Assembly: GCA_049518415.1 (NCBI GenBank)
Contig: JBEKRX010000010.1
Location: 14,964 to 78,963, forward strand
Direction: 5' to 3'
Source of the DNA: Verrucomicrobiota bacterium
GTDB taxonomy: Bacteria; Verrucomicrobiota; Verrucomicrobiia; Limisphaerales; UBA8199
Length of the DNA: 64,000 nt
Of the stretch, positions 40,580-64,000 are shown one piece after another. How positions within the stretch are numbered: position 1 is the stretch's first letter; each line of letters starts with the position of its first letter. The translations under genes were made by a program, and so were the position numbers. Under the pieces are notes generated by a model that was given only the letters and a program-made list of their open reading frames with translations, searched no databases and was not told the DNA's origin.

Positions 40580-41878
40580 ATGAAAACTGCGCTGAATGAA
40601 ACAGCCCTCGTTCTCCTGAACTCTCATTTCCTGACTGCTGCCCTTGGGGTGTCGGTCGCGATTTGTCCGTCGTCTCCTGCCGCCGACACGTCCCGGGCCA
40701 CTCCTTGGCAGGTGGGCCGGCCCATCGTCACTTATTGGGCCGGGCCGCCCATGACCGACGCCACCGCCCGGCAGATGAGCGAGGGCGGGTGGAATCTCGT
40801 TTGGTGCGGCGAGAAAGACCTGGACCTCGTTCGCCGCTACGGCCTGCGCGGGCAGCTTCAGGACCCGCTCCTCGCCCCCGCCTCTCTCGAAGTTCCGGCC
40901 CAGCGGGAAAAGCTCGACGCCCTCATCGCCCGCGTGCGCGCGCATCCCGCCCTCTATGCCTACTTCATCACCGATGAGCCCAACGCCACCAATTTCCCTG
41001 CCCTCGGCCAGTTGGTCGCCTACTTGCGCCGGCGCGACCCGGCACATTTGGCCTACATCAACTTGTTCCCCACCTACGCCAGCAACCAGCAACTCGGCAA
41101 CCAGGGTGACACCCTCACCGCTTACCAGGCCCATCTCCGCCAATACGTGGACATCGTCAAGCCCGCCCTCATCAGCTACGATCACTACCAGTTCACCACC
41201 GAGGGCGATTCGGCCCAATACTTCCTCAACCTCGCCCTCATCCGCCAGGCCGCCCTAGACGCCCGCCTGCCCTTCCTCAACATTGTCCAAGCCTGCACCT
41301 GGACACCCTCCATGCGCGTGCCCAAGGCCGACGAGATACGCTACCTGGTTTACACCACCCTCGCCTATGGCGCTCAGGGCATCTCCTATTACGTCTATTG
41401 CTGCCCCGGCCACACCGGCGGCATCGCCCACGCCGACGGCACACCCACGCCGCTCTACGAGACCCTGAAAGCGCTTAACCGCCAATTCGCGGCCCTCGCC
41501 CTGCAATTGCAGCCTCTGCGTTCACTCGGGGTCTATCACGCCGGCATGTTGCCGCCAGGCGCCCAACCGTTGCCAAAAGACGCTCCGTTCACGCTCGATC
41601 CCCCGCTGCCCGCCATCGACTACAAGGCCCCGGAACCCGTGAAAAGGGCGTTGCTGGGATGCTTCGGGCCGACGGGCAAGACCAGGAGGACCTCCGCCCC
41701 AACGCACCTGTTGGTGGTGAACCTCGACTACCAGTCCCAGGCGGTTTTGGGAATCCGCAGCCCCGCCCGGCTCGAGGTCTTCGATGAGGCCACCGGCCGG
41801 TGGTCGCGCGCAAAAGACAAGCGTAGCGAACTGCGTTTGCCACCCGGAGGCGGAAAACTGGTCCGCCTGCGCCGCTGA
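40580..41878 (+). CDS. Secreted hypothetical protein, glycoside-hydrolase-like (TIM-barrel-type pattern)
   Basis: 432-aa ORF with a signal-like N-terminus. The segment YAYFITDEPNATNFPALGQLVAYLRRRDPAHLAYINLFP resembles the DEP...N..P layout of GH42/GH35-like barrels. This is motif-level only. Confidence 0.5.
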   Translation: MKTALNETALVLLNSHFLTAALGVSVAICPSSPAADTSRATPWQVGRPIVTYWAGPPMTDATARQMSEGGWNLVWCGEKDLDLVRRYGLRGQLQDPLLAPASLEVPAQREKLDALIARVRAHPALYAYFITDEPNATNFPALGQLVAYLRRRDPAHLAYINLFPTYASNQQLGNQGDTLTAYQAHLRQYVDIVKPALISYDHYQFTTEGDSAQYFLNLALIRQAALDARLPFLNIVQACTWTPSMRVPKADEIRYLVYTTLAYGAQGISYYVYCCPGHTGGIAHADGTPTPLYETLKALNRQFAALALQLQPLRSLGVYHAGMLPPGAQPLPKDAPFTLDPPLPAIDYKAPEPVKRALLGCFGPTGKTRRTSAPTHLLVVNLDYQSQAVLGIRSPARLEVFDEATGRWSRAKDKRSELRLPPGGGKLVRLRR

Positions 41879-46690: not shown

Positions 46691-46893
46691 AAAATTTTCC
46701 CAATACAGCCAATACAGCCAACAGAGCCAATGGAGCGTTTGGCACGCGACCCAAAACCTGCTAATACTGTCACCCGGTGAATGCCAAACTGACAGCGCCG
46801 CCTCGGTTCGCGCCCGGCCAGGAACCGGTTCCTGCCCGTTTCCACGCCCGCGCCAGGGGTTTTTGCGCTTATTTCCGCTTATTTCCACTTATC
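46691..46893. repeat. Copy 2 of the roughly 200-bp dispersed repeat (copy 1 is at 4177-4378)
   Basis: Same blocks and orientation as copy 1. It has the 9-mer tandems acagccaat x3, a perfect palindrome caggaaccggttcctg, and the tandem cttatttcc(g/a) x2. It begins within about 7 nt of the tRNA truncation point. Confidence 0.7.
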
Positions 46894-48306
46894 CTTCCGG
46901 CACTCTCTCTCGGCTTGTCGGCCTCGGCCGCCATCCCACTGGCCGCCCGCTTGGAGCTGTTCGTGGACGATTTCCTAATCGAGCAACTGGACGGCGCCGC
47001 CTTGAAACTCCACGAGCCATCGCTCGCGGGCGTGGCCTTGCGTTTCGACCGGCCCTGGGAAGGGCCGTTCTCCGGCTACGTGACGGTGCTCAAGGACGGG
47101 CCCTTGTTCCGCATGTACTACCGGGGTCTGCCCAAAGCGGGGCGCGACGGCTCGGCGGACGAAGTCACCTGCTACGCTGAAAGCCACGACGGCCTCGCCT
47201 GGAGCAAGCCCGCTCTCCGCTTGTTCGAGGTCCAGGGCACGCGCGACAACAACGTAGTGCTCGCCGGGCAGCCGCCCTTCTCCCACAACTTCGCCCCGTT
47301 CCTCGACACCCAGCCCGGCCTGCCAGGCGAGCAACGCTATAAGGCGCTGGCGGGCACCTCGGAAAAGGGGTTGTTCGGCTTCGTCTCCGCAGACGGTCTG
47401 CACTGGCGCAAGCTGCGCGACGCGCCCCTGGTAACCAAGGGCGCTTTCGACTCGCAAAACGTCGCCTTTTGGTCAGACGCCGAGCAGTGCTATGCGCTCT
47501 ATCTGCGCACCTGGACGAGCGGCGAGTTCCGCGGGTTCCGCACCATTAGCCGCGCCACCTCGCCGGACTTCCTGCACTGGTCTGAGCCGCTGGCGATGAC
47601 CTTCGGCGACACGCCCCCGGAGCATCTCTACACCAGCCAGACCCATCCCTACTTCCGCGCCCCCCACCTCTACGTGGCGCTGCCGATGCGCTTCCTGCCG
47701 GGCCGCAAAGTGCTCACCGATGACCAGGCCCGGGCGCTGGGTGTGGACCCGGGCTACGCTGGCGACTGCGCGGAAGCCGTCTTCCTGACCAGCCGCGGCG
47801 GCACCCGTTTTACACGCACCTTTATGGAAGGCTTTATCCGCCCCGGCCTCGACCTCGGCAACTGGGCCTCGCGCGCCGGCCTGACCGCCCAAGGCGTAGT
47901 GCCGACCGGCCCAGCCGAGATGTCGCTTTTCAAGCAGGCGCACTATGCGCAACCCACCTGCCACCTGCTCCGCTACGCGCTCCGTACCGACGGCTTTGTG
48001 TCGGTGAATGCGCCCTATCGCGGCGGCGAATTCCGGACCCGGCCCTTCACCTTCACAGGCAAGGAACTGCTGCTCAACTTCTCGACCGGCGCCGCCGGCA
48101 GCCTCCGCGTCGAAATCCAGGACCCCGACGGCCGGCCCATCCCCGGCCACACGCTGGCCGATGCCACCGAGGTCATCGGCGATGAAATCGAGCGGGTGGT
48201 GTCTTGGAAATCGGGCGCTGACCTGAGCCAGCTCGCCGGGCAGCCGTTGAAGCTGCGCTTCGTCATGAAGGACGCCGATGTGTTTTCGCTGCGCTTCAGG
48301 GAATAA
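46777..48306 (+). CDS. Secreted hypothetical protein, beta-propeller/glycosidase-like (GH32/43/sialidase-type pattern)
   Basis: 509-aa ORF. The motifs are WEGPFSGYVTVLKDGPLFRMYYRG, CYAESHDGLAWSKP, GFVSADGLHWRK and SPDFLHWSEP (repeated D-G-x-x-W blade motifs). The first roughly 40 codons lie inside the dispersed repeat, so the start is uncertain. Confidence 0.6.
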   Translation: MNAKLTAPPRFAPGQEPVPARFHARARGFCAYFRLFPLILPALSLGLSASAAIPLAARLELFVDDFLIEQLDGAALKLHEPSLAGVALRFDRPWEGPFSGYVTVLKDGPLFRMYYRGLPKAGRDGSADEVTCYAESHDGLAWSKPALRLFEVQGTRDNNVVLAGQPPFSHNFAPFLDTQPGLPGEQRYKALAGTSEKGLFGFVSADGLHWRKLRDAPLVTKGAFDSQNVAFWSDAEQCYALYLRTWTSGEFRGFRTISRATSPDFLHWSEPLAMTFGDTPPEHLYTSQTHPYFRAPHLYVALPMRFLPGRKVLTDDQARALGVDPGYAGDCAEAVFLTSRGGTRFTRTFMEGFIRPGLDLGNWASRAGLTAQGVVPTGPAEMSLFKQAHYAQPTCHLLRYALRTDGFVSVNAPYRGGEFRTRPFTFTGKELLLNFSTGAAGSLRVEIQDPDGRPIPGHTLADATEVIGDEIERVVSWKSGADLSQLAGQPLKLRFVMKDADVFSLRFRE

Positions 48307-49385: not shown

Positions 49386-49764
49386 GCGTCAGTTTACGTT
49401 CGCCGCGCAGGATCATCGCCCCCAGGTTGCGGCTGGTGTCCAGAATCCGCGACAAATCTGCCGCGCTCATTCCACGTTCTTCCAGCAAGTGTTTGAGCGC
49501 GTCCAAGCCGCTGATTTTTGGCCAGCGGACTTTCTTGCGCTTGTCGAATTCGTCCACAAATTCCGTGAGCACGTCGAGGTAATCCCGCTGCTCGGCGTTG
49601 AGGCGCGTGAACACGGCGAGGGCGTTCATCATGGCAGTGGCTTCGGCATCCTCCGCGTCGTCATGGATTGGACGCGGCAGGTAAAGCTGGCACAATTCAC
49701 GGTAGGTCTTGGGAATGTCCGCGTTGCTGGCGAAGCGCCGGGTTTTATGTGTCAGAGTCCTCAT
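49324..49764 (-). CDS. higA: HigA-family antitoxin (paralogue)
   Basis: ATG 49764 overlaps the higB stop (ATGA). The C-terminal HTH MSAADLSRILDTSRNLGAMILRGERKLTLNHVRTLARHFGVSADVFLS is almost identical to copy A, while the N-terminal half is diverged. Confidence 0.8.
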   Translation of the reverse strand: MRTLTHKTRRFASNADIPKTYRELCQLYLPRPIHDDAEDAEATAMMNALAVFTRLNAEQRDYLDVLTEFVDEFDKRKKVRWPKISGLDALKHLLEERGMSAADLSRILDTSRNLGAMILRGERKLTLNHVRTLARHFGVSADVFLS

Positions 49765-50069
49765 AATTCGTCTTTCCATCGGTCTTTGTCGTACTCCGCG
49801 TGCGTCAGGAAACGGAGCAGGAACACTTTGCCCGTGTTGTAGTGAATGGCACAGATGAGCCGGTAGGCGTTGCCGCAAATGTTGAACACCACGACCGGAT
49901 TGCCACTGGCCACACGCACCTGGTCTGCCGAACGGAAGCACCGGCGGAGATCGGCAAAATGCCGGAATTGCTCCAGCCGCATGATCCGCCGCCAGAATTC
50001 CAAACCCGTTGCGGCCTGCGGGTGTCGGGCGGCAAAAGCGGCCAGGGTGGTTTCCTTAATAATCCGCAC
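49761..50069 (-). CDS. higB: HigB-family toxin (paralogue)
   Basis: The start was re-picked at GTG 50069, which aligns with the copy-A GTG; the track start at 50075 adds 2 codons. FNICGNAYRLICAIHYNTGKVFLLRFLTHAEYDKDRWKD. Confidence 0.8.
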   Translation of the reverse strand: MRIIKETTLAAFAARHPQAATGLEFWRRIMRLEQFRHFADLRRCFRSADQVRVASGNPVVVFNICGNAYRLICAIHYNTGKVFLLRFLTHAEYDKDRWKDEL

Positions 50070-50071
50070 GC

Positions 50072-50104
50072 ACACAACTTGTGTTCATTCGCTGGATTTG
50101 TCAA
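50072..50104 (-). promoter_or_regulatory. Putative higBA promoter/operator, module B
   Basis: The palindrome acacaa-c-ttgtgt (50072-50084) lies 3 nt upstream of GTG 50069. A TTGACA hexamer sits on the coding strand (tgtcaa, 50099-50104). Confidence 0.4.
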
Positions 50105-52559: not shown

Positions 52560-54709
52560 AAACACCGATTCCTGGGCGGATCCGTCGCGCCTGTCTTCAA
52601 ATCTGCCTTTTCGGCGCGGCGCTCCCGGCAACCTTCGCCGCCGATCTGAACTGGATTCAAACGGCGCGGGTGTTCTTGATCGACGCTTATCAGCCGCCTT
52701 TTGCGCCGAAACTCGAGTACGACGCCGAGGCGCTGGCGCGGACGATGGTCGAGCTGCATGCCAACACGGTGCGCATTTCAACCATGGGAAAGTACTCGAC
52801 GATACAAGGAGTCCGGTTCTCCACTCATCCCGAGCTTGGCGCTCGGGATGTGCTGGCGGAGACGATCGCCGCCTGCAAATCGCGCGGCATCCGCACCGTT
52901 GCCTACATATCGACCGGACATAAACTGGCGTGGTCGATGGTGACCAAGGATTATCCGGAATACGCACAGCGGGTGCGTCCCGGCGGCGGACCCAACCGCG
53001 ACCACATGTATGTCGGCGAGGATCACGGGACGGTGTGCTGGAACACTCCCTATCGGAAGGCCTACCTGGACCTCGTGGAGCATGTGGTGCGGGACTATGC
53101 GGTGGATGGCCTCTATTTCGACACTTGGCGCCCGTTCTACTTCTGGCCGGGACTGAAGGTCTGCTATTGCGATGGATGCCGGAACGGTTTTCAGCGGGCC
53201 TCGGGCAAGGCTATCCCCTGGCATGAGCGGGAGGGGGATTACACCAAGCAAGACCACGAGGTCATCGCGGAGTATCACCAATGGTACCAGGAACAACTGA
53301 TGAGCGTCCTCCAGGAGGTTCGGCGGATGGTAAAGGCCCACAAAGACATTCCGCTGATTTATAACCTGAACAGTGCTGACAATATGGCGAATGAGGACCC
53401 GCGCATTCTCAGGGCGATGGACGCCTTTCTGTACGAGCGCGGCCACTCGCTGCTGGAGCGCGCCGAAGGCGTCAGCCTGGCCCGCGCGGCGGGATTGGGC
53501 GTCTGGCCCTACGTGGGGGTTTATAACAACTGGCCTCGAGTCATCCCCAATGGGCTCGACTATCAACAGGAGATCTTCACCACCGCGGCCTTTGGCGGGG
53601 CTCCCATTATTGCCCAACCGTACGCTTACGTGACGCAGGCGGAAAACCGGCGCTGGGTCAGCCTCCCGTTCTCCGTCCTGAAAGACCATGAGCGGGAACT
53701 CGAGGGGGCTGAGAATGTGCCCTATGTTGCCGTTGTGCAAGCGACTCGAAACCCGCCCGGGCATGCGCAAACCGGGTGGTTTTGGAAGGCGGATGTCCGG
53801 TCATCCACGCTCGGCGCATTCGCCGCCTGTCTCTACGGTCATGTTCAAGTCTCCTCCGTTCCCCAGGCGGTGCTGGATGAGCCCGAGAGGTTGGCCCGCT
53901 ATCGGGTTCTTTATCTGGCGGATATCCCCCAGCTCACGTCCCGCCGCCGGGAGAACCTCGAACGGTTTGTCGAGCACGGCGGCGGACTGCTGGCTTGCTA
54001 TGGGACGTCGCTCTACGGCGCGGCGGGCGAGCGTCTGGAACGATTTGAACTTGAACCTTTGTTGCGGGTTCGTCCAGCGCATCCCCAGGGGGAGCTGGAG
54101 GAAACCCTGAACAGCTACCGGTGCATGACTGGCGGACCCAACGACCTGTATCTCACCCCGCACGCCACCCTCGATGGGCCGCTGGTCCCCCTCGGGTACT
54201 TCGAACCGGTCGAACTGTTGGACGGCGGGTCCACGATGATGGATATCGTCACTGGCGATGGACGCCGTCCGATTCTGCCGGGTGTCGTCACCTCCACCCA
54301 CGGCCAAGGCCGCGTGGTTTACCTGGCGTCGTCCCTGGAGAGTCTCTACAGTTCGACCAAGGAGTCGGTGCTGGGCAGTTGTCTGCGAAACCTGGTCGAA
54401 TATGCCGCCGCCACGCCGCCGCCTTATCAGGTCACTGCACCGAGCTCGCTGATTGCCAACTTGACCCGGAATGGAAACCGCCGCGTGCTCCACTTGTTGA
54501 ACTGGACCACGGAGCCGGACAACGAGAGCGGATACTTGCCTCCCGTCGAGAATGTTTGCGTGCGTTTGAGGATACCCGGGGGCAGGCAGGTGCGCCGGCT
54601 CGCGGGTTTCCCCGAGACGTCGTTCCGACACAAGCAGTCCGGGCAAGAACTGGAATTGCGTTTCCCTCGGATCGATGCTTACGAGGGGATCACTTTTGAA
54701 TTGCAGTGA
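52556..54709 (+). CDS. Secreted hypothetical protein, GH42-like barrel + GATase1-like C-terminal domain (putative glycoside hydrolase)
   Basis: ATG 52556 overlaps the MFS stop (ATGA). It has a signal-like N-terminus, then FLIDAYQPPFAPKLEYDAEALARTMVELHANTVRI and VDGLYFDTWRPFYFW, and a C-terminal RYRVLYLADIPQLTSRRRENLERFVEHGGGLLACYG. Confidence 0.55.
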   Translation: MKTPIPGRIRRACLQICLFGAALPATFAADLNWIQTARVFLIDAYQPPFAPKLEYDAEALARTMVELHANTVRISTMGKYSTIQGVRFSTHPELGARDVLAETIAACKSRGIRTVAYISTGHKLAWSMVTKDYPEYAQRVRPGGGPNRDHMYVGEDHGTVCWNTPYRKAYLDLVEHVVRDYAVDGLYFDTWRPFYFWPGLKVCYCDGCRNGFQRASGKAIPWHEREGDYTKQDHEVIAEYHQWYQEQLMSVLQEVRRMVKAHKDIPLIYNLNSADNMANEDPRILRAMDAFLYERGHSLLERAEGVSLARAAGLGVWPYVGVYNNWPRVIPNGLDYQQEIFTTAAFGGAPIIAQPYAYVTQAENRRWVSLPFSVLKDHERELEGAENVPYVAVVQATRNPPGHAQTGWFWKADVRSSTLGAFAACLYGHVQVSSVPQAVLDEPERLARYRVLYLADIPQLTSRRRENLERFVEHGGGLLACYGTSLYGAAGERLERFELEPLLRVRPAHPQGELEETLNSYRCMTGGPNDLYLTPHATLDGPLVPLGYFEPVELLDGGSTMMDIVTGDGRRPILPGVVTSTHGQGRVVYLASSLESLYSSTKESVLGSCLRNLVEYAAATPPPYQVTAPSSLIANLTRNGNRRVLHLLNWTTEPDNESGYLPPVENVCVRLRIPGGRQVRRLAGFPETSFRHKQSGQELELRFPRIDAYEGITFELQ

Positions 54710-54830
54710 GGCCGACCACCGCCTCTTGAGGGACTCATATGAGATTCCGAAGACACCTTCCCCCTCGTAGCCTCAAGCGGTCCCGTCTCTTGAGGGGGCG
54801 GTTTGGGCCATTGCTCTCATTGAACATCGC

Positions 54831-55106
54831 GTGCGCCCTCACGGCCGCGAGAACAGCGACAAATACGTGTACGCCCTTTCCAACAACGGTTTCTGGGACA
54901 ACGGTGATAACCTGATCCTCGGCTGCGTAGCCAGGGAAAAAATCCGAAATCTCAAGAGCGCAGACTGGGAGTATTACGCCGGCGGAGACGGCCTCGAATC
55001 GCAGAACTGGATCCAGGACATGAACCGGGCCAAACTCGTTTTGGATAGCCCCTGTACGGTGCAGAAATTCATCCGCCCCCATGACGAATCGCAGAATGCG
55101 TTTTGA
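54831..55106 (+). pseudogene. C-terminal fragment of a secreted beta-propeller/DUF4185-like protein
   Basis: KYVYALSNNGFWDNGDNLILGCVAREKIRNLKSADWEYYAGGDGLESQNWIQDMNRAKLVLDS looks like an internal or C-terminal piece of a larger protein. There is no plausible N-terminal part upstream, and the region is AT-richer. Confidence 0.35.
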
Positions 55107-55175
55107 GTTCGCGCGGCTCGCCGGCGCCGGTATGCTGTCGCCGATGAACCCAGCTCCCAGAATCCGGCCCACCCG

Positions 55176-55439
55176 TTGATGGCCAAGGTTCAGCAGCTTT
55201 TCAGCCGCGACCTGGCCCTGGCAAACGATTACCTGCGCCAGGAGAACCAGATTCTGCGCGGCAAGTTGGGCAGCCGGGCGCCCCTGACCGAGGCAGACCG
55301 GCGCATTCTCGTCCAGTACGGCCTGCGGATTAAGGAGCGCCTCGCGGCTCGGGCGTTTTTTTCTTTGCAAGCAGGCGTCGCTCGCGTACAAAGCACGCGC
55401 GCAAACAAATCACGGCGCCTGAGTTGCAGTGTCGGATAA
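55176..55439 (+). pseudogene. N-terminal fragment of a transposase (integrase-core/DDE type), truncated
   Basis: LALANDYLRQENQILRGKLGSRAPLTEADRRILVQYGLRIKERL matches the leucine-zipper/HTH leader typical of IS3/IS481-like transposases (L-R-x-E-N-x-x-L-R...L-T-x-x-D-R). No catalytic domain follows. Confidence 0.4.
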
Positions 55440-55445
55440 CGCGTT

Positions 55446-56222
55446 ATGAACCAGCTCGACCAGACGGTCGAGGAGTACTTGAGGGCCATCGGAGCGAGTT
55501 GCCCGCGTTTACTCTTCGCCTTGCAGGAAAGCCCGGAAGCGGTGTGGGGCGAGATCATGAGAATGGAATCGGCCGGCTATGCCTTCCAGGAGGTCTGCTC
55601 CGGTGTCCAGGACAAATCAGCCGCGGCGCGCGAAATCATGACCCTCGTCGAGGCTCTGCGCGTCCAAATGGCCAAAGACGGGCTCATTGACTATGAGGAG
55701 TTTGCCGCGTTCCGGCAGGGCGTATCGGCCATCCAGCGTTGCGCGAACCGGTTGCGGAATTCGTTCGGTGAACAAGGCCCAAGGAGCAATCGCCGCTTGA
55801 AGACTTGCGTTTTTTACTGCTCGAACAATTTGGACGCAGGCCGGTTGGCCGATCTTGGCGAGGAACTGGGCGGAGACACGGTCAAGACCATCGGTCTGCC
55901 GTGCTCCGGAAAAGTGGATGTGCCTTACCTTATCAAAGCCCTGGAAACGGGCGCGGACGGGGTGGCGGTTGTGGCCTGCAAGAAGGAGGAGTGCCGCCAC
56001 TTCGAGGGCAGCCGGCGCGCCCACAAACGCGCCGAGGCGGTCGAATCGCTGTTGGAGGAAATCGGACTCGGCGCGGGACGGATGGCCGTCATCGAGTGCG
56101 CGCCAGGCGCGGCCGGGCAGGTCTGTGACGAAATCAAGCAGTTCATTGAACGGGTCAGAAGTCTGCCCCAAGGACGCACCCCCAGCGATGCGATGAACCA
56201 ACAGGAACGTATGGTGGCATGA
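55446..56222 (+). CDS. MvhD/FlpD-domain protein with an uncharacterised roughly 117-aa N-terminal helical extension
   Basis: The C-terminal half reads CVFYCSNNLD...IGLPCSGKVDVPYLIKALETGADGVAVVACKKEECRHFEGSRRAHKR...LLEEIGL. This is the methyl-viologen-reducing hydrogenase delta-subunit pattern. Confidence 0.7.
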   Translation: MNQLDQTVEEYLRAIGASCPRLLFALQESPEAVWGEIMRMESAGYAFQEVCSGVQDKSAAAREIMTLVEALRVQMAKDGLIDYEEFAAFRQGVSAIQRCANRLRNSFGEQGPRSNRRLKTCVFYCSNNLDAGRLADLGEELGGDTVKTIGLPCSGKVDVPYLIKALETGADGVAVVACKKEECRHFEGSRRAHKRAEAVESLLEEIGLGAGRMAVIECAPGAAGQVCDEIKQFIERVRSLPQGRTPSDAMNQQERMVA

Positions 56223-57121
56223 AAGTTGATGGCCAACTCGCCAGAAGGATCGAGAACGGAGAGTTTATCATTACCGCCGAGCATGCGCCCCCGACCACGG
56301 CGACTCTGTCTGCCACGGAAGCGGCCTTGAAAGCCTTGGGCGGCAAGCTCACGGCGGTCAACATGGGCGACAACCAACACGGCGTGGCGCTGTCTTCCCT
56401 GGCCGCCTCGGCGGCGGCGCTCAAAACGGGCCTCGAGCCGGTTCTCCAAATGGTCACCCGCGACCGGAACCGCATCGCCCTCCAGTCCGATTTGCTGGGA
56501 GCTGCCAGTCTGGGGATCAAGAATGTGCTTTGTTTGTCCGGCTATCATCAGACGCTGATCGGCTGTCCGGAGGCCACAAACGTTTTCGACATCGATTCCA
56601 CGCAGTTTATCGCCATGACCACTCGGATGTGCGAGCAGGGCCTGCTGGCCGACGGGAGGAAGATCGACGGGCCATTTTCGATGTTGGTGGGAGCGGTGGC
56701 CAATCCCTTCCTGAAGCCGCTGGAACTCAACCTGATCAGGCTCCACCGAAAAATCGAGGCTGGCGCCAGGTTCATTCAAACGCACGCGGTCTTTGACCTC
56801 GACATGTTCAGCCAATGGCTCGAGGCCGTTTGCCAGGCAGGTCTTGCGAAGAAGGTCGCGATTCTGGCCGGCGTGCTCCCCTTGGAGAGCGCAGCGGAGG
56901 CCCAGAAGCTGCGGGAGACCCATCCCGATTTTTACGTCCCGAAGGAAGTGATGGAAAGGCTCCAAGCCCCTGGCCACGGCGCCGGGAAACCGGGCTGGGC
57001 GATCTGCGTGGAAACCATCCAGAAACTAAAGACGATGGAGGGGGTGCGCGGGATTCATATTCTCTCGGGTGGCAAAGAAGCTGTGGTGCCGGAGCTGTTT
57101 GCGGCCGCCGGGCTGTCGTGA
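56219..57121 (+). CDS. metF: Methylenetetrahydrofolate reductase, acetogen/archaeal-type MetF
   Basis: ATGA overlap with the upstream gene. The motifs are FIITAEHAPP, AVNMGDNQHG, EPVLQMVTRDRNRIALQSDLLGAASLGIKNVLCLSG, VFDIDSTQ, GAVANPF and IEAGARFIQTHAVFD. Confidence 0.85.
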   Translation: MKVDGQLARRIENGEFIITAEHAPPTTATLSATEAALKALGGKLTAVNMGDNQHGVALSSLAASAAALKTGLEPVLQMVTRDRNRIALQSDLLGAASLGIKNVLCLSGYHQTLIGCPEATNVFDIDSTQFIAMTTRMCEQGLLADGRKIDGPFSMLVGAVANPFLKPLELNLIRLHRKIEAGARFIQTHAVFDLDMFSQWLEAVCQAGLAKKVAILAGVLPLESAAEAQKLRETHPDFYVPKEVMERLQAPGHGAGKPGWAICVETIQKLKTMEGVRGIHILSGGKEAVVPELFAAAGLS

Positions 57122-57133
57122 CCGGGAGAAAGC

Positions 57134-58531
57134 GTGCCGGAAAAATATCATATCAAGACACGTCCGGTGCCCCCGCGACGGCCGCGCATCGGCAAACACG
57201 GCGTGGTGGACTGGCGGGAGGACTGCGCCCGGTGCCATAACTGCGTGAAGAAGGCCTGCGTCTATGACCGCTACCGGCAGGAGGCGGAGTATATTCGCAA
57301 CCTGAGCGACGTGGAGGCGCTGTTCTTCGAGTGCATGGGGTGTTTCTCGTGCGTGCAGGATTGCACCAAGGGCCTCTTGTGCCTGTCCGTAAATCCCGTC
57401 TATGAAAGCCTTGGGAACAGCTACTGGAAACCGGACATCATCAAAACCACGTGGCTCCAGGCTGAAACCGCGAAAATCCCCGTCTCGGGCGCGGGCTACC
57501 AGGGGCCGTTTTCCGGCCCTGGTTTCGACTCGATGTGGACGGACATGTCGGAGATTGTTCGTCCGACCCGCGACGGGATTCACGGCCGGGAGTACATCAG
57601 CACGGCGGTTGACATCGGACGCAAGCCTCCGTTCCTGGCTTTACAGGGAAGCCAGGTCGCGGCCGAGCTGCCCCCCCTGGTGTCGATCCCGATGCCGCTG
57701 ATCATCGATCTAAGTTCGCCGGCGCATACTTTGCCGCAGCTCGATGCCGTGATCGAACAGACGGCTGCGGCGACCGACTTGATCGCGATCCTGGATGCCG
57801 GACACCAGCAGGCCACCGAGAAGCACCTGCGTCATATCGCGTTTTATCTGGGTCCCGACAGTGCCCCAGTGCCGGCCGATGTCCTGAGAAAGACCAGGCT
57901 GGTGGAAATCGCGGACAGCCCCACGGTGACCGAGCGCATCAAGGCAATCAAGAAGATCCACCCGGAGATCGTCGCCTCGATCAGGGTCGAGCTGACCGCA
58001 ACGGGCCTCGGGCGCGCCCTCGAGCTGGCCGGGTGGCCAGAAGTGGAGGTGATCCATATCGTGGCGGACGCCAACGGCAACGAAATCGGAGCGCAACCGC
58101 CGCGATTTCTGAAGGACATGATCCGGCAGCTCCATACCGCCCTCATCGAGAAGGGGACCCGGGACGAGATCACGCTCATGGCCGGGGGCGGAATTGCGCT
58201 GCCGGAACACCTGGCCAAAGCCATCATTTGCGGCGCGGACCTGGTGACCATCAATCTGCCGTTGCTGATCGCGCTGGAATGTCATCTGTGTGAGAGCTGC
58301 AAACCGGGGCGGCCGTGCCCAGCCAGGCTGGAGACCATCGATCGCGATTTTGCCGTGGGCCGCATGACGAATCTGATCGCGGCCTGGCATGACCAGTTGG
58401 TCGAAGTGATGGGGGCAATGGGCATGCGCGAGGTGCGTCGTCTGCGCGGCGATGTCGGCCGCGCCATGTTCTTTGAGCAACTTGAGGAGGAAACCTTCGG
58501 CAAGCTTTATGGCACCAGAAAGACGCATTGA
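57134..58531 (+). CDS. Fe-S protein related to the glutamate-synthase FMN subunit (divergent paralogue of the next gene)
   Basis: GTG 57134 is preceded by gggagaaag. The N-terminal Cys clusters are CARCHNCVKKAC and CMGCFSCVQDC. The C-terminal ITLMAGGGIALPEHLAKAIICGADLVTINLPLLIALEC..C..C parallels LIASGGLRSAYDVAKAIALGADGVVIGTAEMVALGC..C..C of 58509-60077. The central GltB signatures were not recognised. Confidence 0.6.
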   Translation: MPEKYHIKTRPVPPRRPRIGKHGVVDWREDCARCHNCVKKACVYDRYRQEAEYIRNLSDVEALFFECMGCFSCVQDCTKGLLCLSVNPVYESLGNSYWKPDIIKTTWLQAETAKIPVSGAGYQGPFSGPGFDSMWTDMSEIVRPTRDGIHGREYISTAVDIGRKPPFLALQGSQVAAELPPLVSIPMPLIIDLSSPAHTLPQLDAVIEQTAAATDLIAILDAGHQQATEKHLRHIAFYLGPDSAPVPADVLRKTRLVEIADSPTVTERIKAIKKIHPEIVASIRVELTATGLGRALELAGWPEVEVIHIVADANGNEIGAQPPRFLKDMIRQLHTALIEKGTRDEITLMAGGGIALPEHLAKAIICGADLVTINLPLLIALECHLCESCKPGRPCPARLETIDRDFAVGRMTNLIAAWHDQLVEVMGAMGMREVRRLRGDVGRAMFFEQLEEETFGKLYGTRKTH

Positions 58532-60077
58532 AGAGCTACTGCCTGAGAACACGCTGAAGACACGCGTGCCGCAGGAAAAGGTGGAGCGGGTCACCCGACC
58601 GGCCCCGTCCCGCTATCGCAATGAAATCGCCAAGTACCTTGTCCATCGCAGCCCGGACTGTCGGCGCTGCGGGAAGTGCGGGGAGGTTTGTCCCCACCAG
58701 GTCCACGTGCGCAACCCCGGCTACAAGTATTTTGGTGAGCCGCTCCATCACTTGTGCATCGGGCCGGCCTGCGCAAAGACCGGCCACGATTGCGTGACCC
58801 ATTGCCCGCAAGGAGCCCTGCAGGTCCGGGAAAATCCGATGTATCATGCGCTGGGCGATTATCGCTGGTCGGGTGATTTGATTCTGGCGACGTGGAAAAT
58901 GGCTGAGACCGGCGAGGTGCCGCCGGCTGCCTACGATTACGATTATGAGGGCGGCCATTCCGGCGGTGGTTTCGACCGGCTCCGGTTCAAATTCCCCGAG
59001 CGACCGCCCATGGCCCTGCGCGAGGACCAGATCGACACGAGCCTGCTGCTCAACAAGCGCGACGATGGCCGGCCTAAGATCAAGATTGATGTGCCCTGGT
59101 ATGGAGGCGGCATGTCCTTCGGGTCGGTGAGCAATGTCACCCAGTTGGCCAAAGCCAGGGCGGCGGTGGCGTTTAATACCTTTACCTGCACGGGCGAGGG
59201 CGGATACATGGAGCGGCTGAGGCCGTATGACGACCATGTGATTACGCAGGTGGCCACGGGCCTGTTCGGCGTGCGCGAAGAAACCATCCAGCGGGTGCCG
59301 ATCGTGGAGTTCAAGTATGCCCAGGGCGCCAAGCCGGGTCTGGGCGGGCACCTCCTGGGCGACAAGGTCACGATCGATGTAGCCAGGATGCGCGAGTCGG
59401 TGGTGGGTTTCTCGCTCTTCTCCCCGTTCCCCTTCCATAGCGTCTATTCCATCGAAGACCACATGAAGCACATCGAGTGGGTCAAGCATGTGAACCGGCG
59501 CGCCTTGATCTCGACGAAGGTTTCCACGCCTACGGATGTGGATATGGTGGCGGTGGGCAGTTACTCCGCGGGCACTCATATCGTCCACATTGACGGCGGC
59601 TATGGCGGGACCGGCGCGGCGCCGGACATCGCCAAGAAGAACATCGCCATGCCCATCGAATACGCCATTGGCAAAGTCCACCGTTTTCTAATGGATGAAG
59701 GGGTCCGGGACAAGGTGACCTTGATTGCCAGCGGCGGCCTTCGCTCGGCCTATGATGTGGCCAAGGCCATTGCCCTGGGGGCGGATGGAGTGGTCATCGG
59801 GACGGCGGAAATGGTGGCGCTGGGGTGTGTGCGGTGCAGCCGCTGTGAGAGCGGCCGCGGTTGTCCGCGCGGCATCGCCACGACCGACCCCGAGCTTTCC
59901 CAGAAGATGGAGATTGATTGGGGCACCCAGCGGTTGATCAACCTTTACAGTGCCTGGCGCAAGGTGCTCCTCTCAATTCTGCAACGCCTGGGCCTGCGCA
60001 GCGTCAGCGAACTGCGCGGACGCACCGACCTCATGATGCACCTGGATTATACGAACGACCTGGCGAGAACCTCATGA
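58509..60077 (+). CDS. Glutamate-synthase FMN-binding (GltB domain-2-like) subunit with an N-terminal ferredoxin-like domain, archaeal type
   Basis: The start was re-picked at ATG 58509, a 23-nt overlap with the upstream gene. The motifs are CRRCGKCGEVCP, CVTHCPQGA, WYGGGMSFGSVS, CTGEGG, FKYAQGAKPGLGGHLLG, FHSVYSIED, IDGGYGGTGAAP and LIASGGLRSAYDVAKAIALGADGV. Confidence 0.8.
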   Translation: MAPERRIEELLPENTLKTRVPQEKVERVTRPAPSRYRNEIAKYLVHRSPDCRRCGKCGEVCPHQVHVRNPGYKYFGEPLHHLCIGPACAKTGHDCVTHCPQGALQVRENPMYHALGDYRWSGDLILATWKMAETGEVPPAAYDYDYEGGHSGGGFDRLRFKFPERPPMALREDQIDTSLLLNKRDDGRPKIKIDVPWYGGGMSFGSVSNVTQLAKARAAVAFNTFTCTGEGGYMERLRPYDDHVITQVATGLFGVREETIQRVPIVEFKYAQGAKPGLGGHLLGDKVTIDVARMRESVVGFSLFSPFPFHSVYSIEDHMKHIEWVKHVNRRALISTKVSTPTDVDMVAVGSYSAGTHIVHIDGGYGGTGAAPDIAKKNIAMPIEYAIGKVHRFLMDEGVRDKVTLIASGGLRSAYDVAKAIALGADGVVIGTAEMVALGCVRCSRCESGRGCPRGIATTDPELSQKMEIDWGTQRLINLYSAWRKVLLSILQRLGLRSVSELRGRTDLMMHLDYTNDLARTS

Positions 60078-62731
60078 ACGGTGAATTGATAAAGCGCCTG
60101 GCCGATTCAAGAAAGCGGCTGGCCGAGCCGCTTAACCACGCTTCGCGCCTGAACAAGGAAGCCGAGGAAGGGGGCTGCGGAGTGATGGGTTTCTGTTGCA
60201 GCGAGCCCGTGCCGGGCAAGCATGTTTATGCACCCTCCCGGCAGATGCACAATCGGGGCAATGGCAAGGGGGGCGGCATCGCCGCGGTGGGGTTGGTGCC
60301 GGAGCAGCTTGGGGTCAGCCGCGAGGTCCTCGACAGCCATTACTTGTTGCACCTGGCGTTCATTGACACCAAGGTGCGGCCCGAAATCGAGGCGCAGTTC
60401 ATCACCCCTTATTTCGACATCGCGGCGACTGGCCAACTCAACCAGGTCGAGGACTGGAAGTCCGTGCCGGGGCTGGAGGTGTTGCCGCCGGCGGTCAGCC
60501 GCTATTTTGTGCGCGTCAAACCGAAGGTGTTGGACGCGTTCATCGCCAGAAACCATCTGCAAGCGCTGGACCGAGGGGAAGCGGAAGACGAATTTGTCAA
60601 CCAGAACAGCTTCAGCCTGAATCAGAAATACTACGCGTCCCTGGGGGAGAAAAGGGCCTTCGTGCTCTCGCACGGCCGGGACCTCATGATCCTCAAGGTA
60701 GTCGGGTTCGCCGAAGCGATTGTCAATTACTACAAGCTTGAGGAACTCTGCGCCTACGAATGGATTGCCCACCAGCGTTTCCCGACCAAGGGTCGGGTCT
60801 GGCACCCCGGCGGCGCCCATCCGTTTGCGGCCATTGACATGGCGCTGGTGCATAACGGCGACTTTGCCAATTACCATTCCGTCACCGAGTATCTCAGGCA
60901 GCGTCAGATCTATCCCCAGTTCCTCACCGACACGGAAGTCTCGGCCTTGCTTTTCGATTTGCTGAGCCGGACGTACCACTATCCGCTGGAGTATATCATC
61001 GAGGCGCTGGCGCCCAGCACGGAACTGGACTTTGACCGGCTCGATGTGGAGAAACAGAAGATTTACCGGGCGATCCAAGCCACGCATATTCACGGTTCTC
61101 CCGATGGCCCGTGGTTTTTCATCATCGCCCGCACGCTTGCCCGAAAAAGGCAGTTCCAGTTGATGGGCATCACCGACACCGCGATGCTTCGGCCGCAGGT
61201 GTTTGCTTTCAGCGACGGCGAAGTCCAGGTGGGCCTGATTGCTTCGGAAAAACAAGCCATCGATGCCACGCTCTTGAGCCTGTCGAACGACGACAAACGG
61301 ATTTGCCCGGTGGCGGACCGGTACTGGAACGCGCGCGGAGGCAGTCACAATGACGGCGGGGCCTTCATTTTCAATCTGCAGAAGGATTCCGTCGGCAAGA
61401 TGCGGATTACGTGCGCCGATAAATTCGGCAAACTGGTCCCCATGCCGAGAGGAACTGAACCCTGTGATTTTTCGCGGGAATTGCTGTTGTCCTCCGAATC
61501 GGGGGAGTCGGCCGAGACCATTAGCAATGAGCGGTTTGTCCCCGGCAACAGCCTGGCGATTTTCGAAATGATGCGCGGACTCATGCCGCAATGGACCTTT
61601 GATGAGTTTCGCCTGGCGTGCCAGCAAGTCACCCAGCAGGCGAAAGATCCTTCCCAGACGGCCACCGCGATTGAGGTCCTCACGCTGCTGAACGACCGGA
61701 GATACTCAACCGGCGCCAAGAAGCGCAGCCATGTTCTCCACGTTGTCCACAGCGAGTGGAACCGACTGTTCAGCAATCTCCCCAACATCGGCTCAAAAGA
61801 TTCCGCCAAGAGCGCGTTTCGGCTCATCGATTTCGAGACCCGTGCACACCTGAGGAAACCGCAAGAGAACGAAACAACGCTGGTGATCGACGCCGCGCAT
61901 TTCCCGCCGGAAGGTGACGACTGTGACGCTGCCCTGCTCGTGGATGCCTACCTGAAGGGGTGGCGGCACTTCATCAGCTTCCATTGTATTGGCCAGCGAT
62001 ATCTCGGCTGCGGACTGGGGCCCGACACGGACGAGGTGACCATCGATGTCTATGGCAGCAGTGGAGATTACCTGGCTTCAGGGATCGATGGGCTGGCGAT
62101 TACAGTGCATGGCAATGCCCAGGACCAGTTGGGCCAGATTATTAAAAAAGGAAAACTGGTCATTCACGGCGACGTGGGCCAGACCTTTATGTATGGCGCC
62201 AAAGGCGGCTGCGTCTATGTTCTCGGCAACGCCGCCGGCAGGCCGCTGATCAACTCCGTCGGCCGGCCAAAAGTAGTCATCAATGGCACCTGCCTTGATT
62301 TTCTGGCGGAGTCCTTCATGGCCGGCGATCCTCATAACGGAGGCGGGTTCGTGGTCTTGAATGGCGTGAAGTTCGATGATGACGGACAATTGGTTTCGCT
62401 GCCGGAGCCTTATCCCGGCGGCAATCTGTTCTCCCTGGCTTCCGGCGGAGCCATTTTTGTCCGCGATCCGGACCGAACCCTGGTCGAGCAGCAGTTAAAC
62501 GGCGGCAAGTTTGCCCGGTTGACCGGCGCAGACTGGGATTTGATCCTGCCGCATCTGGAGGAGAATCAGAGGCTGTTCGGAATCACCATCGACCAACTGT
62601 TGACGGATAAGGGTCGGAAGCGCAAACCCGCGGCAGTCTATCGCAAAGTTCTTCCCGGCAGCGTCGCTGCCATTGCGGAGGAAGATACCGACGACGCTGA
62701 AGCCGGCGTCGAAGAGATGGCCGCGAAATAG
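60074..62731 (+). CDS. Fusion protein: class-II (Ntn) glutamine amidotransferase-like domain + unknown middle region + GXGXG (GltB domain-3/FwdC-like) domain
   Basis: ATGA overlap with the upstream gene. The Ntn Cys candidate lies in EEGGCGVMGF, after a leader of roughly 33 aa. GATase_2-like motifs are HQRFPTKG and LVHNGDFANY. The GXGXG region is VYGSSGDYLASGIDGLAITVHGNAQDQLGQIIKKGKLVIHGDVGQTFMYGAKGGCVYVLGNAAGR. Confidence 0.75.
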   Translation: MNGELIKRLADSRKRLAEPLNHASRLNKEAEEGGCGVMGFCCSEPVPGKHVYAPSRQMHNRGNGKGGGIAAVGLVPEQLGVSREVLDSHYLLHLAFIDTKVRPEIEAQFITPYFDIAATGQLNQVEDWKSVPGLEVLPPAVSRYFVRVKPKVLDAFIARNHLQALDRGEAEDEFVNQNSFSLNQKYYASLGEKRAFVLSHGRDLMILKVVGFAEAIVNYYKLEELCAYEWIAHQRFPTKGRVWHPGGAHPFAAIDMALVHNGDFANYHSVTEYLRQRQIYPQFLTDTEVSALLFDLLSRTYHYPLEYIIEALAPSTELDFDRLDVEKQKIYRAIQATHIHGSPDGPWFFIIARTLARKRQFQLMGITDTAMLRPQVFAFSDGEVQVGLIASEKQAIDATLLSLSNDDKRICPVADRYWNARGGSHNDGGAFIFNLQKDSVGKMRITCADKFGKLVPMPRGTEPCDFSRELLLSSESGESAETISNERFVPGNSLAIFEMMRGLMPQWTFDEFRLACQQVTQQAKDPSQTATAIEVLTLLNDRRYSTGAKKRSHVLHVVHSEWNRLFSNLPNIGSKDSAKSAFRLIDFETRAHLRKPQENETTLVIDAAHFPPEGDDCDAALLVDAYLKGWRHFISFHCIGQRYLGCGLGPDTDEVTIDVYGSSGDYLASGIDGLAITVHGNAQDQLGQIIKKGKLVIHGDVGQTFMYGAKGGCVYVLGNAAGRPLINSVGRPKVVINGTCLDFLAESFMAGDPHNGGGFVVLNGVKFDDDGQLVSLPEPYPGGNLFSLASGGAIFVRDPDRTLVEQQLNGGKFARLTGADWDLILPHLEENQRLFGITIDQLLTDKGRKRKPAAVYRKVLPGSVAAIAEEDTDDAEAGVEEMAAK

Positions 62732-62746
62732 CGAGAGGTAACTACC

Positions 62747-63313
62747 GTGATCACCATCAACAAGAAGAAGACTGGCCGCGGCTTAAAGGACGCGGTGGAA
62801 AAGATATGCGGCGTCGGTCTGAGCGTCTGTTTCCAGTGCAAGAAATGCTCCAGCGGTTGTTCGGTGGCCAAACTGGCCAAGTCCCGGCCTTCGGAAATGA
62901 TGCGGCAACTGCATCTAGGCGCGGGCAATGAACTGCTGGAGAGCGATCTCGTCTGGACGTGCGCCTCGTGTGAGATCTGTTCCGCTCGCTGCCCGATGGG
63001 GATTGATGTCGCAGCGGTCATTGACGCGTTGCGCAAGCTGGCCCTCGAAAGGGGCGCGTCCAAGCCGGCTGGCAATGTCCCGTTGTTTAACCGGGCATTC
63101 CTAAGAACGGTCAAAATGTTCGGTCGCACCTATGAAATCGGGATCGTCGCCGCCTACAAACTCGGCACGGGGAAATGGATGAACGACACGGAAAAATTCC
63201 CGGCCATGCTCAAGAAGCGGAAGATTTCTTTGCTGCCTCCCCGGGGTGGCGACCGGAAAACAGTGGGTCGCATTTTCAAGAGCTCCAAACAGAACAAAGG
63301 ACCCCAAGCATGA
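62747..63313 (+). CDS. HdrC-like 4Fe-4S dicluster subunit
   Basis: GTG 62747 is preceded by gagagg. The motifs are CFQCKKCSSGCSV and CASCEICSARCPMGID, separated by PSEMMRQL, as in heterodisulfide reductase subunit C family proteins. Confidence 0.75.
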   Translation: MITINKKKTGRGLKDAVEKICGVGLSVCFQCKKCSSGCSVAKLAKSRPSEMMRQLHLGAGNELLESDLVWTCASCEICSARCPMGIDVAAVIDALRKLALERGASKPAGNVPLFNRAFLRTVKMFGRTYEIGIVAAYKLGTGKWMNDTEKFPAMLKKRKISLLPPRGGDRKTVGRIFKSSKQNKGPQA

Positions 63314-64000
63314 GGTATGCGTATTTTCCAGGGTGCTCGGCTGAATCCACGGCCCAGGACATGCACCAATCCACTTTGGCGGTGGCGCGGGCGCTGGGAA
63401 TTGACCTGGTTGAACCCAAAGGCTGGACGTGCTGCGGCGCGACCGCCGCCCACCAGACCGATCCTTTCCTGGCTGTGTCGTTGCCCGCCGCCAATATGGC
63501 CAAAGTCCAGGACATGAAACTGGACATGGTGGTTAATTGCGCCGCCTGCTTCAACCGCATGAAAGTGGCCAACCACCAAATCGCGGCTCATCCAGCCATG
63601 CGCCAGCAGGTCAGCGAGGCGCTGGAGCGGGATTATGACGGCTCGGTCAAAGTGCGGCATTTCCTCGAAGTGCTCCTGGACGACGTGGGACTGAAGGCAA
63701 TCTCCCGCGCCGTTAAGCATTCACTGAAGGACCTCAAGGTGGCTTGCTACTACGGGTGCCTGCTGGTCCGGCCGCCCAAGATTTTGAAATTCGACGACCC
63801 AGAAAATCCGACGTCCCTTGACCGGCTGGTCAAAGCGATGGGCGGCCAGAGCCTGGACTGGCCGTGCAAGGTCGAATGTTGCGGCGGCGGGTTGTCGCTT
63901 TCCCGAACGGATGTGGTGGTGCAGCTCACGGATTCGATTCTCGACATGGCCTGCCAGACGGGTGCCGACTGTATCGCGGTCAGTTGCCCTATGTGTCAGG
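63310..64000 (+). CDS. HdrB-like CCG-domain subunit (3' end beyond the window)
   Basis: Not in the ORF track because it runs off the window. ATG 63310 overlaps the hdrC-like stop (ATGA). The translation is MRYAYFPGCSAESTAQD...WTCCGATAAH...NCAACFNRM...ACYYGCLLVRPP...KVECCGGGLS...AVSCPMCQ. Two CCG motifs are present. Confidence 0.75.
   Translation, partial: MRYAYFPGCSAESTAQDMHQSTLAVARALGIDLVEPKGWTCCGATAAHQTDPFLAVSLPAANMAKVQDMKLDMVVNCAACFNRMKVANHQIAAHPAMRQQVSEALERDYDGSVKVRHFLEVLLDDVGLKAISRAVKHSLKDLKVACYYGCLLVRPPKILKFDDPENPTSLDRLVKAMGGQSLDWPCKVECCGGGLSLSRTDVVVQLTDSILDMACQTGADCIAVSCPMCQ

Follow-up and report, generated by a model that had tools for sequence, protein, structure and literature searches.

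We show that the 64,000-nucleotide (nt) stretch of a Verrucomicrobiota genome analysed here (contig JBEKRX010000010.1; the whole stretch is called the window) ends within a ten-gene operon, mvhD1-metF-gltBx-gltB-gltAC-hdrC-hdrB-hdrL-mvhD2-metV, which brings together the genes of a methylene-tetrahydrofolate (methylene-THF) reductase, an Hdr-type electron-transfer core and a split glutamate synthase (the Glt genes). Because metF and metV, genes 2 and 10, encode two subunits of one enzyme and yet stand at opposite ends of the operon, flanking the Glt and Hdr genes, we read the operon as one functional unit and take this placement as the strongest genomic argument for doing so. We propose that an Hdr-type core fed by NAD(P)H serves MetFV and the split glutamate synthase as a single redox unit, a reading to which we give an even chance of being right. 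Its parts belong to known families, namely the type IV methylene-THF reductase, HdrL or type III HdrA, and the split glutamate synthase. We found no description of the combination in the open-access literature, in agreement with an initial reading of the DNA letters and their translations (the sequence-only reading), which knew of no characterised complex of such composition.

A ten-gene operon and its proteins

According to the list of open reading frames (ORFs), the window itself holds the first seven of the ten genes, with hdrB cut at the window end (Table 1). The HdrC protein was found on five ENA metagenome contigs. Because contigs that match the window with 0 mismatches (L001 over 11254 nt and L003 over 5544 nt) continue directly downstream with the end of hdrB, hdrL, mvhD2 and metV, the operon comprises ten genes; those past position 64000 are given in window-equivalent coordinates taken from the matching contigs. 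After metV, the metagenome contigs have a gap of ~500 nt and then an unrelated gene. Every junction within the operon is an overlap or a gap of at most 15 nt. Start and stop codons overlap as ATGA at 56219 (mvhD1/metF), 60074 (gltB/gltAC) and 63310 (hdrC/hdrB), and again between mvhD2 and metV, while the ATG of gltB at 58509 lies 23 nt inside gltBx (stop codon 58529-58531), behind GAGGAGG. The metF-gltBx gap of 12 nt (57122-57133) is preceded by GGGAGAAAG, the gltAC-hdrC gap of 15 nt (62732-62746) contains GAGAGG, and the hdrB-hdrL and hdrL-mvhD2 gaps measure 1 and 3 nt. The 736-nt region upstream of the operon (54710-55445) contains two short ORFs (54831-55106 and 55176-55439) that match no Pfam family.

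The sequence-only reading had described seven same-strand, coupled genes with overlaps, short gaps and purine-rich runs, and had named their products as an MvhD, a MetF, two ferredoxin-headed GltB-like proteins of the flavin mononucleotide (FMN) type, a class-II glutamine amidotransferase (GATase) fused to a GXGXG domain, an HdrC and an HdrB. A check of ORFs and junctions found all of these exactly where it had put them, and Pfam and NCBIfam agree with its domain calls. Its remark that neither HdrA nor MetV was to be seen holds inside the window and is otherwise an artefact of where the window ends, since HdrL and MetV lie just downstream. It had also set against its own proposal the prospect that HdrA and MetV follow downstream and that the Glt trio is the sole glutamate synthase; of these two, an HdrA-type protein and MetV were indeed found downstream.

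Table 1. The ten genes of the operon, in window coordinates up to 64000 and in window-equivalent coordinates beyond.
Gene product	Position	Strand	Length, family and best profile matches
MvhD1	55446-56222	+	258 aa; MvhD/FlpD-type [2Fe-2S] electron-transfer protein; PF02662 FlpD 86 bits, aa 135-240
MetF	56219-57121	+	300 aa; methylene-tetrahydrofolate reductase catalytic subunit; PF02219 98 bits
GltBx	57134-58531	+	465 aa, GTG start; degenerate paralogue of glutamate-synthase FMN subunit; Glu_synthase 47 bits
GltB	58509-60077	+	522 aa; FMN/Fe-S catalytic subunit of split glutamate synthase; PF01645 314 bits
GltA/C fusion (gltAC)	60074-62731	+	885 aa; class-II GATase + GXGXG; GXGXG 55 bits, GATase_6 26 bits
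HdrC-like	62747-63313	+	188 aa; 2x[4Fe-4S]; Fer4_17, Fer4_8; TIGR03290 (CoB-CoM heterodisulfide reductase subunit C) 61 bits
HdrB-like	63310-64000 (to 64179 in full)	+	289 aa in full; CCG x2 76 bits; TIGR03288 160 bits
HdrL	64181-68677 (window-equivalent)		1498 aa; HdrA-type
MvhD2	68681-69127 (window-equivalent)		148 aa; FlpD 165 bits
MetV	69124-69792 (window-equivalent)		222 aa; PF12225 MTHFR_C 124 bits; last operon gene

Both the retained catalytic residues and, in related genomes, the nitrogen-assimilation context suggest that the GltB-like genes encode a genuine glutamate synthase, one of the split type known from archaea. In the gltAC product, a class-II, N-terminal-nucleophile (Ntn) GATase domain with a 34-residue propeptide before Cys35 is joined by a variable linker of ~200 residues to a GXGXG β-helix domain. 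The GATase_6 score of 26.1 is slightly below the Pfam cut-off of 27. The motifs E-G-G-C35-G-V, H233/R235/P237/T238 (HQRxPT), H260-N-G-D263 (HNGD) and T285-D-T-E288 (TDTE) are invariant down to 43% identity among seven sequences, with the HQRxPT region reading HQR(Y/F)PTKG in homologues. An FwdC-type function for the GXGXG domain was ruled out, as there are no Fwd partners. GltB has an N-terminal ferredoxin head (4Fe-4S dicluster, Fer4) and matches the alpha subunit of Azospirillum GltS over residues 817-1170 with 183 bits. Its AQGAKPG, GGHL and ARMR motifs align to AQGAKPG, GGQL and ARLR of the Azospirillum enzyme and presumably hold the Lys, Gln and Arg that bind 2-oxoglutarate in GltS; together with the four-Cys Fe-S motif CxxCxxCx5CP, they are invariant in 49 homologues.

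GltBx combines an N-terminal 2x[4Fe-4S] ferredoxin head, seen as a weak Fer4 dicluster match, with the remnant of a TIM barrel, its Glu_synthase match covering profile positions 184-368. The AQGAKPG motif of the 2-oxoglutarate loop is missing and the central barrel is poorly conserved; retained are an FMN-phosphate motif, GGGI...CGAD, at the C-terminal end and a Cys cluster, C..C..C.....CP. Residues 116-157 (window 57479-57604) include a 40-residue block, SGAGY.G.F..GFD.MWTDMSEIVRPTRDGIHGREYIS, that is near-invariant in 45 sequences from many phyla and may form an interface or a cofactor site. Homologues of the same length share the N-terminus MPEKYHIKT, which backs the GTG start at 57134; the gene callers used on the metagenome contigs picked a later ATG. 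An AlphaFold2 model has a mean predicted local distance difference test (pLDDT) score of 56.7, with a confident TIM-barrel core at residues ~190-380 (72-93), a poor remainder and the N-terminal 186 residues unmodelled. The matches that Foldseek gives are generic TIM barrels of the FMN/IMPDH type and the alpha subunit of GltS, the latter with the best query-normalised TM-score, 0.41. In databases, the protein appears only as 'glutamate synthase-related protein' or 'ferredoxin'.

The nitrogen context comes from related loci, where recurrent neighbours include type I glnA, amt, P-II, carA/carB, purF-like and class-I GATase genes, activators of the NifA/NtrC type and an archaeal-type NrpR; the glutamine synthetases encoded there reach 541 bits with the equivalog model for type I GlnA, whose cut-off is 429. 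Other loci show what can take the place of the Met and Hdr genes. Where MvhD, MetFV and Hdr are missing (L084:5127-6971 and L089:5079-6917), a GlcD-like flavin adenine dinucleotide (FAD) oxidase of 612-614 residues with a ferredoxin domain is encoded directly upstream of gltBx, and in three giant proteins of 2526-3152 residues (P0144, P0162 and P0194) a GlcD/D-lactate-dehydrogenase-like oxidase (FAD_binding_4 + FAD-oxidase_C) is fused to Glu_synthase and GXGXG, with P0194 additionally matching 4Fe-4S dicluster domains. Such loci and fusions suggest a glutamate synthase driven by a 2-hydroxyacid. Since an oxidase either replaces MvhD, MetFV and Hdr or is fused to the Glt domains, the Glt genes behave as a terminal reductase with exchangeable electron-input modules.

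On the Met and Hdr side, MetF contains the motif VTRDRNRIALQSDLLGA, matches the MTHFR half of NCBIfam PRK08645 with 157 bits and has only a weak similarity (E about 1e-5) to MetF structures of the E. coli type. The encoding of MetF with a MetV of family PF12225 in one cluster is a feature of type IV methylene-THF reductases, as is the presence of an HdrA-type flavoprotein, an HdrB with 2 CCG domains, an HdrC with 2x[4Fe-4S] and an MvhD. MvhD1 has, ahead of its FlpD domain, an N-terminal extension of ~113 residues (window 55446-55790) that matches no Pfam family and is shared only by closely related Verrucomicrobiota (L010 and L017 align over residues 1-256 of 258); in other phyla, the match begins at about residue 101-146 and the protein is 125-139 residues long.

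HdrL matches HdrA (5odc) in four stretches with 576 bits in total. Its N-terminus is HdrA-like, with GGGIAG at residue 16. An insert at residues 160-640, carrying GAGPAG (FAD) and GGGNVA, gives 258-348 bits to bifurcating NADPH-binding modules of the NfnB/Stn type against about 157-167 to GltD, and a second complete HdrA-like unit follows, with GGGLSG at residue 1073 and a ferredoxin domain at the C-terminal end. HdrL thus has what defines HdrL or type III HdrA proteins, that is, an HdrA core with an inserted GltD/NfnB-like module for FAD, NAD(P)H and 2x[4Fe-4S], followed by mvhD. GGGNVA is a GXGXXA motif, which has been read as an indicator of NADP (PMC12054007), and for this reason the donor to HdrL is probably NADPH.

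Distribution and gene orders

Homologues of gltAC form more than 7600 protein clusters at 90% identity, and, when one genome per species was scanned, relatives turned up in at least 589 species genomes. Our comparison of loci covers the best 80 of these at least 589 carriers, including 41 fully flanked loci that each come from a different species genome. The best 80 are all metagenome-assembled genomes (MAGs) and span more than 10 phyla, with carriers in the Verrucomicrobiota, Planctomycetota, Thermodesulfobacteriota (Desulfobacterales, Syntrophales and Syntrophorhabdia), Chloroflexota, Acidobacteriota, Bacteroidota/Ignavibacteria, Leptospiraceae, Latescibacterota, Armatimonadota and Myxococcota. 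MetF and MetV are encoded beside the Glt genes in 38 of the 41 fully flanked loci, HdrL is encoded in 31, and the Glt genes stand by themselves in three. The adjacency is thus no matter of chance, and the genes form one conserved functional neighbourhood.

Mapping by tblastn with the ten operon proteins revealed five arrangements. The ten-gene order of the window (A) is that of most phyla and recurs with differing flanks in Verrucomicrobiota, Planctomycetota, Syntrophales, Dehalococcoidia, Leptospiraceae, Ignavibacteria, Bacteroidales, Acidobacteriota, Myxococcota and Armatimonadota. Desulfobacterales have a circular permutation of it, gltAC-hdrC-hdrB-hdrL-mvhD-metV-mvhD-metF-gltBx (B). The Met genes follow the Glt genes in mvhD-gltBx-gltB-gltAC-metV-metF (C; L048, L050, L051 and L053) and precede them in mvhD-metV-metF-gltBx-gltB-gltAC (D; L070, L075, L079-L082, L087 and L088), and a last group has mvhD-gltBx-gltB-gltAC or the Glt genes alone (E; L058, L060, L067, L077, L078, L084 and L089). 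Two loci look like intermediate or ancestral arrangements: L082 (Deltaproteobacteria UBA7527) has two MetV-MetF pairs, one beside gltBx-gltB-gltAC and one after hdrC-hdrB-hdrL-mvhD, and L062 (Ca. Desulfofervidaceae) has an HdrL-like gene, mvhD, metV, metF and mvhD, followed by the Glt genes.

Across 30 genomes, the divergence of nine proteins from the window copies co-varies (Spearman 0.71-0.96), and copies from Verrucomicrobiota and from Sedimentisphaerales share about 80% identity. Since gene order is kept amid differing flanks and protein identities vary together, the comparison indicates that the cluster is inherited as a unit and has probably been transferred as one too. With their counterparts in Sedimentisphaerales and Phycisphaerales (Planctomycetota) MAGs from peat, bog and fen (L013, L015, L016 and L018), the cluster proteins of the window have an identity of about 76-86%, with lower values of 54-66% for MetF and MvhD1. 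Near-identical copies also occur on two short contigs that were assigned by binning to Terracidiphilus (Acidobacteriota) and Dongiaceae (L038 and P0274). Such similarity across phyla points either to recent transfer of the whole operon between them or to binning errors.

Upstream of the cluster, the NrpR operator GGAA-N6-TTCC was found in none of 60 loci. Of the 60 upstream regions, 12 contain a sigma-54 promoter pattern, where shuffles lead one to expect 4.5 and reach 9 at most. Good matches, of the TGGCAT-N5-TTGCA type and located 187-433 nt upstream, occur in some Desulfobacterota and Acidobacteriota (L075, L079, L085 and L027), and L027 has a NifA-like activator gene nearby. The window has a weak sigma-54-like match, which is unconvincing and lies 18 nt ahead of the start codon.

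A proposed redox unit and its rivals

The redox unit that we propose would consist of three modules. In the first, HdrL, with its two HdrA-like FAD units and, inserted in the first of them, the NfnB/GltD-like module for NAD(P)H, FAD and 2x[4Fe-4S], would be joined by HdrC, HdrB and the two MvhD connectors. In the second, MetF and MetV would reduce 5,10-methylene-THF to 5-methyl-THF. In the third, the gltAC product would release ammonia from glutamine, and GltB, with FMN and Fe-S clusters, would form and reduce 2-iminoglutarate; GltBx would be a non-catalytic Fe-S (possibly FMN) partner, probably for wiring or docking. NAD(P)H, probably NADPH, would be oxidised at the NfnB-like flavin of HdrL, and its electrons would pass through the Fe-S chains of HdrA, HdrC, HdrB and MvhD to methylene-THF and 2-iminoglutarate, both high-potential acceptors. 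By our own estimate, which is not a computed value, the 2-oxoglutarate plus glutamine/glutamate couple lies well above NAD(P)H, and the surplus driving force may serve to reduce ferredoxin by flavin-based bifurcation. Such coupling is plausible because HdrA- and NfnB-type flavins, modules of both kinds being recognised here by sequence match, are known sites of bifurcation, and because both acceptor couples lie above NAD(P)H. It is tempting to go further and to imagine a single supercomplex, an 'electron-bifurcating glutamate synthase', in which NADPH is bifurcated and the reduction of 2-oxoglutarate plus glutamine and of methylene-THF drives that of ferredoxin, but we consider this strong form unlikely. 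A flavin-based bifurcating or confurcating reductase had already been suggested by the sequence-only reading; the idea survives as a live hypothesis, although not with the GltB-like proteins as stand-ins for HdrA and MetV.

Several observations weigh against a single redox unit. Fusions of a Met or Hdr protein with a Glt protein are absent from the ORFs of the 80 loci. The modules are separable, as the Glt genes occur without MetFV or Hdr in three of the 41 fully flanked loci and on further, shorter contigs, and Moorella-type MetFV-Hdr clusters exist without Glt genes. Co-transcription could reflect a shared regulation of amino-acid biosynthesis, and the co-variation in divergence is expected from linkage alone. 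The GltBx model is poor (mean pLDDT 56.7 with AlphaFold2). In the window itself, no nitrogen-assimilation neighbours were seen over 64 kb, and an Rfam search of the region 54600-55600, upstream of the operon, gave no match and hence no known riboswitch. Finally, there is no cultured carrier among the top 120 matches of three protein searches or among the best 80 loci.

The strongest rival holds that one transcript encodes two independent enzymes, a type IV reductase made of MetFV, HdrCB, HdrL and MvhD2 and a ferredoxin-dependent glutamate synthase made of MvhD1, GltBx, GltB and GltAC, which are linked only by co-regulation, as parts of amino-acid biosynthesis, and by joint transfer. We regard this as a serious possibility, if somewhat short of an even chance. 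It would account for the missing fusions, for the Glt-only loci (L077, L084 and L089, plus L060 on a shorter contig), for those that have Glt and MetVF without Hdr (L048, L051, L070, L079-L081 and L087) and for L082, where one MetVF pair stands at the Glt genes and another at Hdr. Furthermore, the ferredoxin heads of GltB and GltBx could take electrons from free ferredoxin, and MetVF alone is ferredoxin-dependent in several acetogens (PMC8760232). Two unconnected enzymes sit poorly, however, with the commonest arrangement, in which seven genes, including all Glt genes, lie between metF and metV, and with the persistence of MetFV near the Glt genes across at least four gene orders and more than 10 phyla. 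They also leave aside that MvhD, a dedicated connector between subunits in Mvh-Hdr complexes, is encoded directly before metF-gltBx or gltBx, and that the NfnB/GltD-like module of HdrL is the natural electron-donor partner of GltB-type proteins.

Improbable, in our view, is a role in catabolism or redox balance alongside the Wood-Ljungdahl pathway, such as the oxidation of methyl-THF when Desulfobacterota and Chloroflexota oxidise acetyl-CoA, in which the Hdr core would confurcate or bifurcate and the Glt-like module would be an auxiliary electron sink or act on another 2-oxoacid. Many carriers do belong to lineages that commonly use this pathway (Desulfobacterales, Syntrophales and Dehalococcoidia), and MetFV-Hdr clusters are usually discussed within it (PMC5736913, PMC7325909). 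Against this, the organism of the window resembles polysaccharide-degrading Verrucomicrobiota (GH127, melibiase, glucuronyl esterase and PPDK) and the 64 kb contain no Wood-Ljungdahl genes. Glutamate synthesis cannot be a stoichiometric catabolic sink, the 2-oxoglutarate-binding residues are kept, and the recurrent neighbours are nitrogen-assimilation genes rather than folD, fhs or acs.

The three GltB-derived domain types of the cluster also build N-methylglutamate synthase, MgsABC. With MetF next to them, the sequence-only reading had considered a route from amines to THF, in which an amine-handling enzyme of this type feeds one-carbon (C1) units to THF and MetF; we now hold this to be very improbable, given that genes of the gmaS or mgdABCD kind do not recur near the cluster in the 80 loci, that the glutamine synthetases nearby are type I GlnA and are accompanied by amt, P-II, carAB, purF and NrpR, and that the motifs for glutamine hydrolysis (Cys, Asn-Gly and Asp) are invariant, as are K, Q and R of the 2-oxoglutarate site. 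The proposal of the same reading that, in a non-canonical MetF complex, HdrA and MetV give way to the GltB-like FMN/Fe-S proteins arose from the apparent lack of both inside the 64-kb window and can be set aside, since HdrL with its two HdrA-like units, MvhD2 and MetV follow in the same operon on zero-mismatch contigs and related loci carry HdrL (31 of 41) and MetV (38 of 41).

Elsewhere, the window encodes a HigB-family toxin at 49761-50075 on the minus strand (PF09907, 82 bits) and has, at 8385-9332 on the same strand, a partial match of 31 bits to an IS1-type DDE transposase that covers only the C-terminal part and is likely the remnant of an insertion sequence. Long ORFs of 432-939 residues without a Pfam match, at 38779-40581 on the minus strand and at 41903-44722, 46777-48306, 40580-41878 and 11424-12905 on the plus strand, lie among genes for polysaccharide degradation and the cell surface (GH127, melibiase, glucuronyl esterase, PA14, BatA, MoxR and a DUF1559/N-methyl protein).

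Significance and relation to known systems

The partner reaction of Hdr-associated MetFV reductases has gone unexplained since 2014, and HdrL-type proteins have never been assigned a function. Our results indicate that many uncultivated anaerobes, including abundant Verrucomicrobiota, Planctomycetota, Desulfobacterota and Chloroflexota of peat and sediment, genetically wire Hdr and MetFV to a glutamate synthase. If the products form one complex, this would be a new redox-enzyme composition that links C1 metabolism to nitrogen assimilation, a candidate for energy conservation in anabolism and a testable hypothesis for the missing partner reaction. Were the bifurcating supercomplex to prove real, energy-starved anaerobes would recover energy from biosynthetic reductions, and the long-sought partner reaction of HdrABC-associated MetFV would have its first concrete candidate. 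Even if the enzymes are independent, the analysis defines a bacterial glutamate synthase of four parts, MvhD-GltBx-GltB-GltAC, that is widespread and can exchange its electron inputs; current annotation labels its proteins only 'glutamate synthase', 'glutamate synthase-related protein' or 'ferredoxin'.

Among known systems, the type IV reductase MetFV-HdrCBA-MvhD of Moorella (Mock et al. 2014, as reviewed in PMC8760232) and Sporomusa (PMC9430772) has in common with our operon that MetF, MetV, HdrC, HdrB, an HdrA-type flavoprotein and MvhD are encoded together and that NAD(P)H enters at the HdrA-type subunit. In the Moorella enzyme, HdrA is the site of NADH oxidation, and coupling to methylene-THF requires a second acceptor that is unknown (PMC8760232). 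The operon described here departs from the six-subunit definition of that type, as four additional genes (gltBx, gltB, gltAC and a second mvhD) lie within it and bring the number to ten. Moreover, its HdrA is a tandem protein of 1498 residues with an inserted NfnB/GltD-like module, its metF and metV lie at opposite operon ends, and its host appears to be a non-acetogenic heterotroph.

The Glt genes resemble the archaeal split glutamate synthase, in which three genes encode the three GltB domains and which is essential in Methanococcus maripaludis (bioRxiv 10.1101/2024.03.05.583561); F420-dependent variants, FGltS, have also been noted (PMC9012536). Both systems have GltB domains on separate polypeptides, an FMN subunit with a ferredoxin head and a four-Cys motif, and no canonical free GltD small subunit. 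In contrast to the archaeal enzyme, GATase and GXGXG are fused here, a degenerate GltBx is always added, and the partners are MvhD, MetFV and Hdr in bacteria of many phyla. With bacterial GltBD, the operon shares the chemistry-defining residues of the FMN domain, the Ntn amidotransferase, the GXGXG domain and a GltD-family NAD(P)H module; its large subunit is split, however, the GltD-like module lies inside HdrA, and four Cys take the place of three. Some carriers hold canonical gltB and gltD as well, within the flanks of two loci (L024 and L089).

HdrL itself has two kinds of relatives. Its insert is closest to the NADPH-binding NfnB/StnC-type module of NfnAB and of the Sporomusa-type Nfn (StnABC), but here the module is embedded in HdrA and there is no NfnA partner. 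As a whole, it corresponds to the protein described as HdrL, an Hdr/glutamate-synthase fusion followed by mvhD (PMC2702500), and to the archaeal 'type III HdrA' as a second published counterpart (PMC12054007). These share a large HdrA-type protein and a GltD/NfnB-like NAD(P)H module followed by mvhD, whereas in the operon reported here the neighbours of HdrL are hdrCB, metFV and the genes of a glutamate synthase, rather than dsr, fdh or other hdrA genes.

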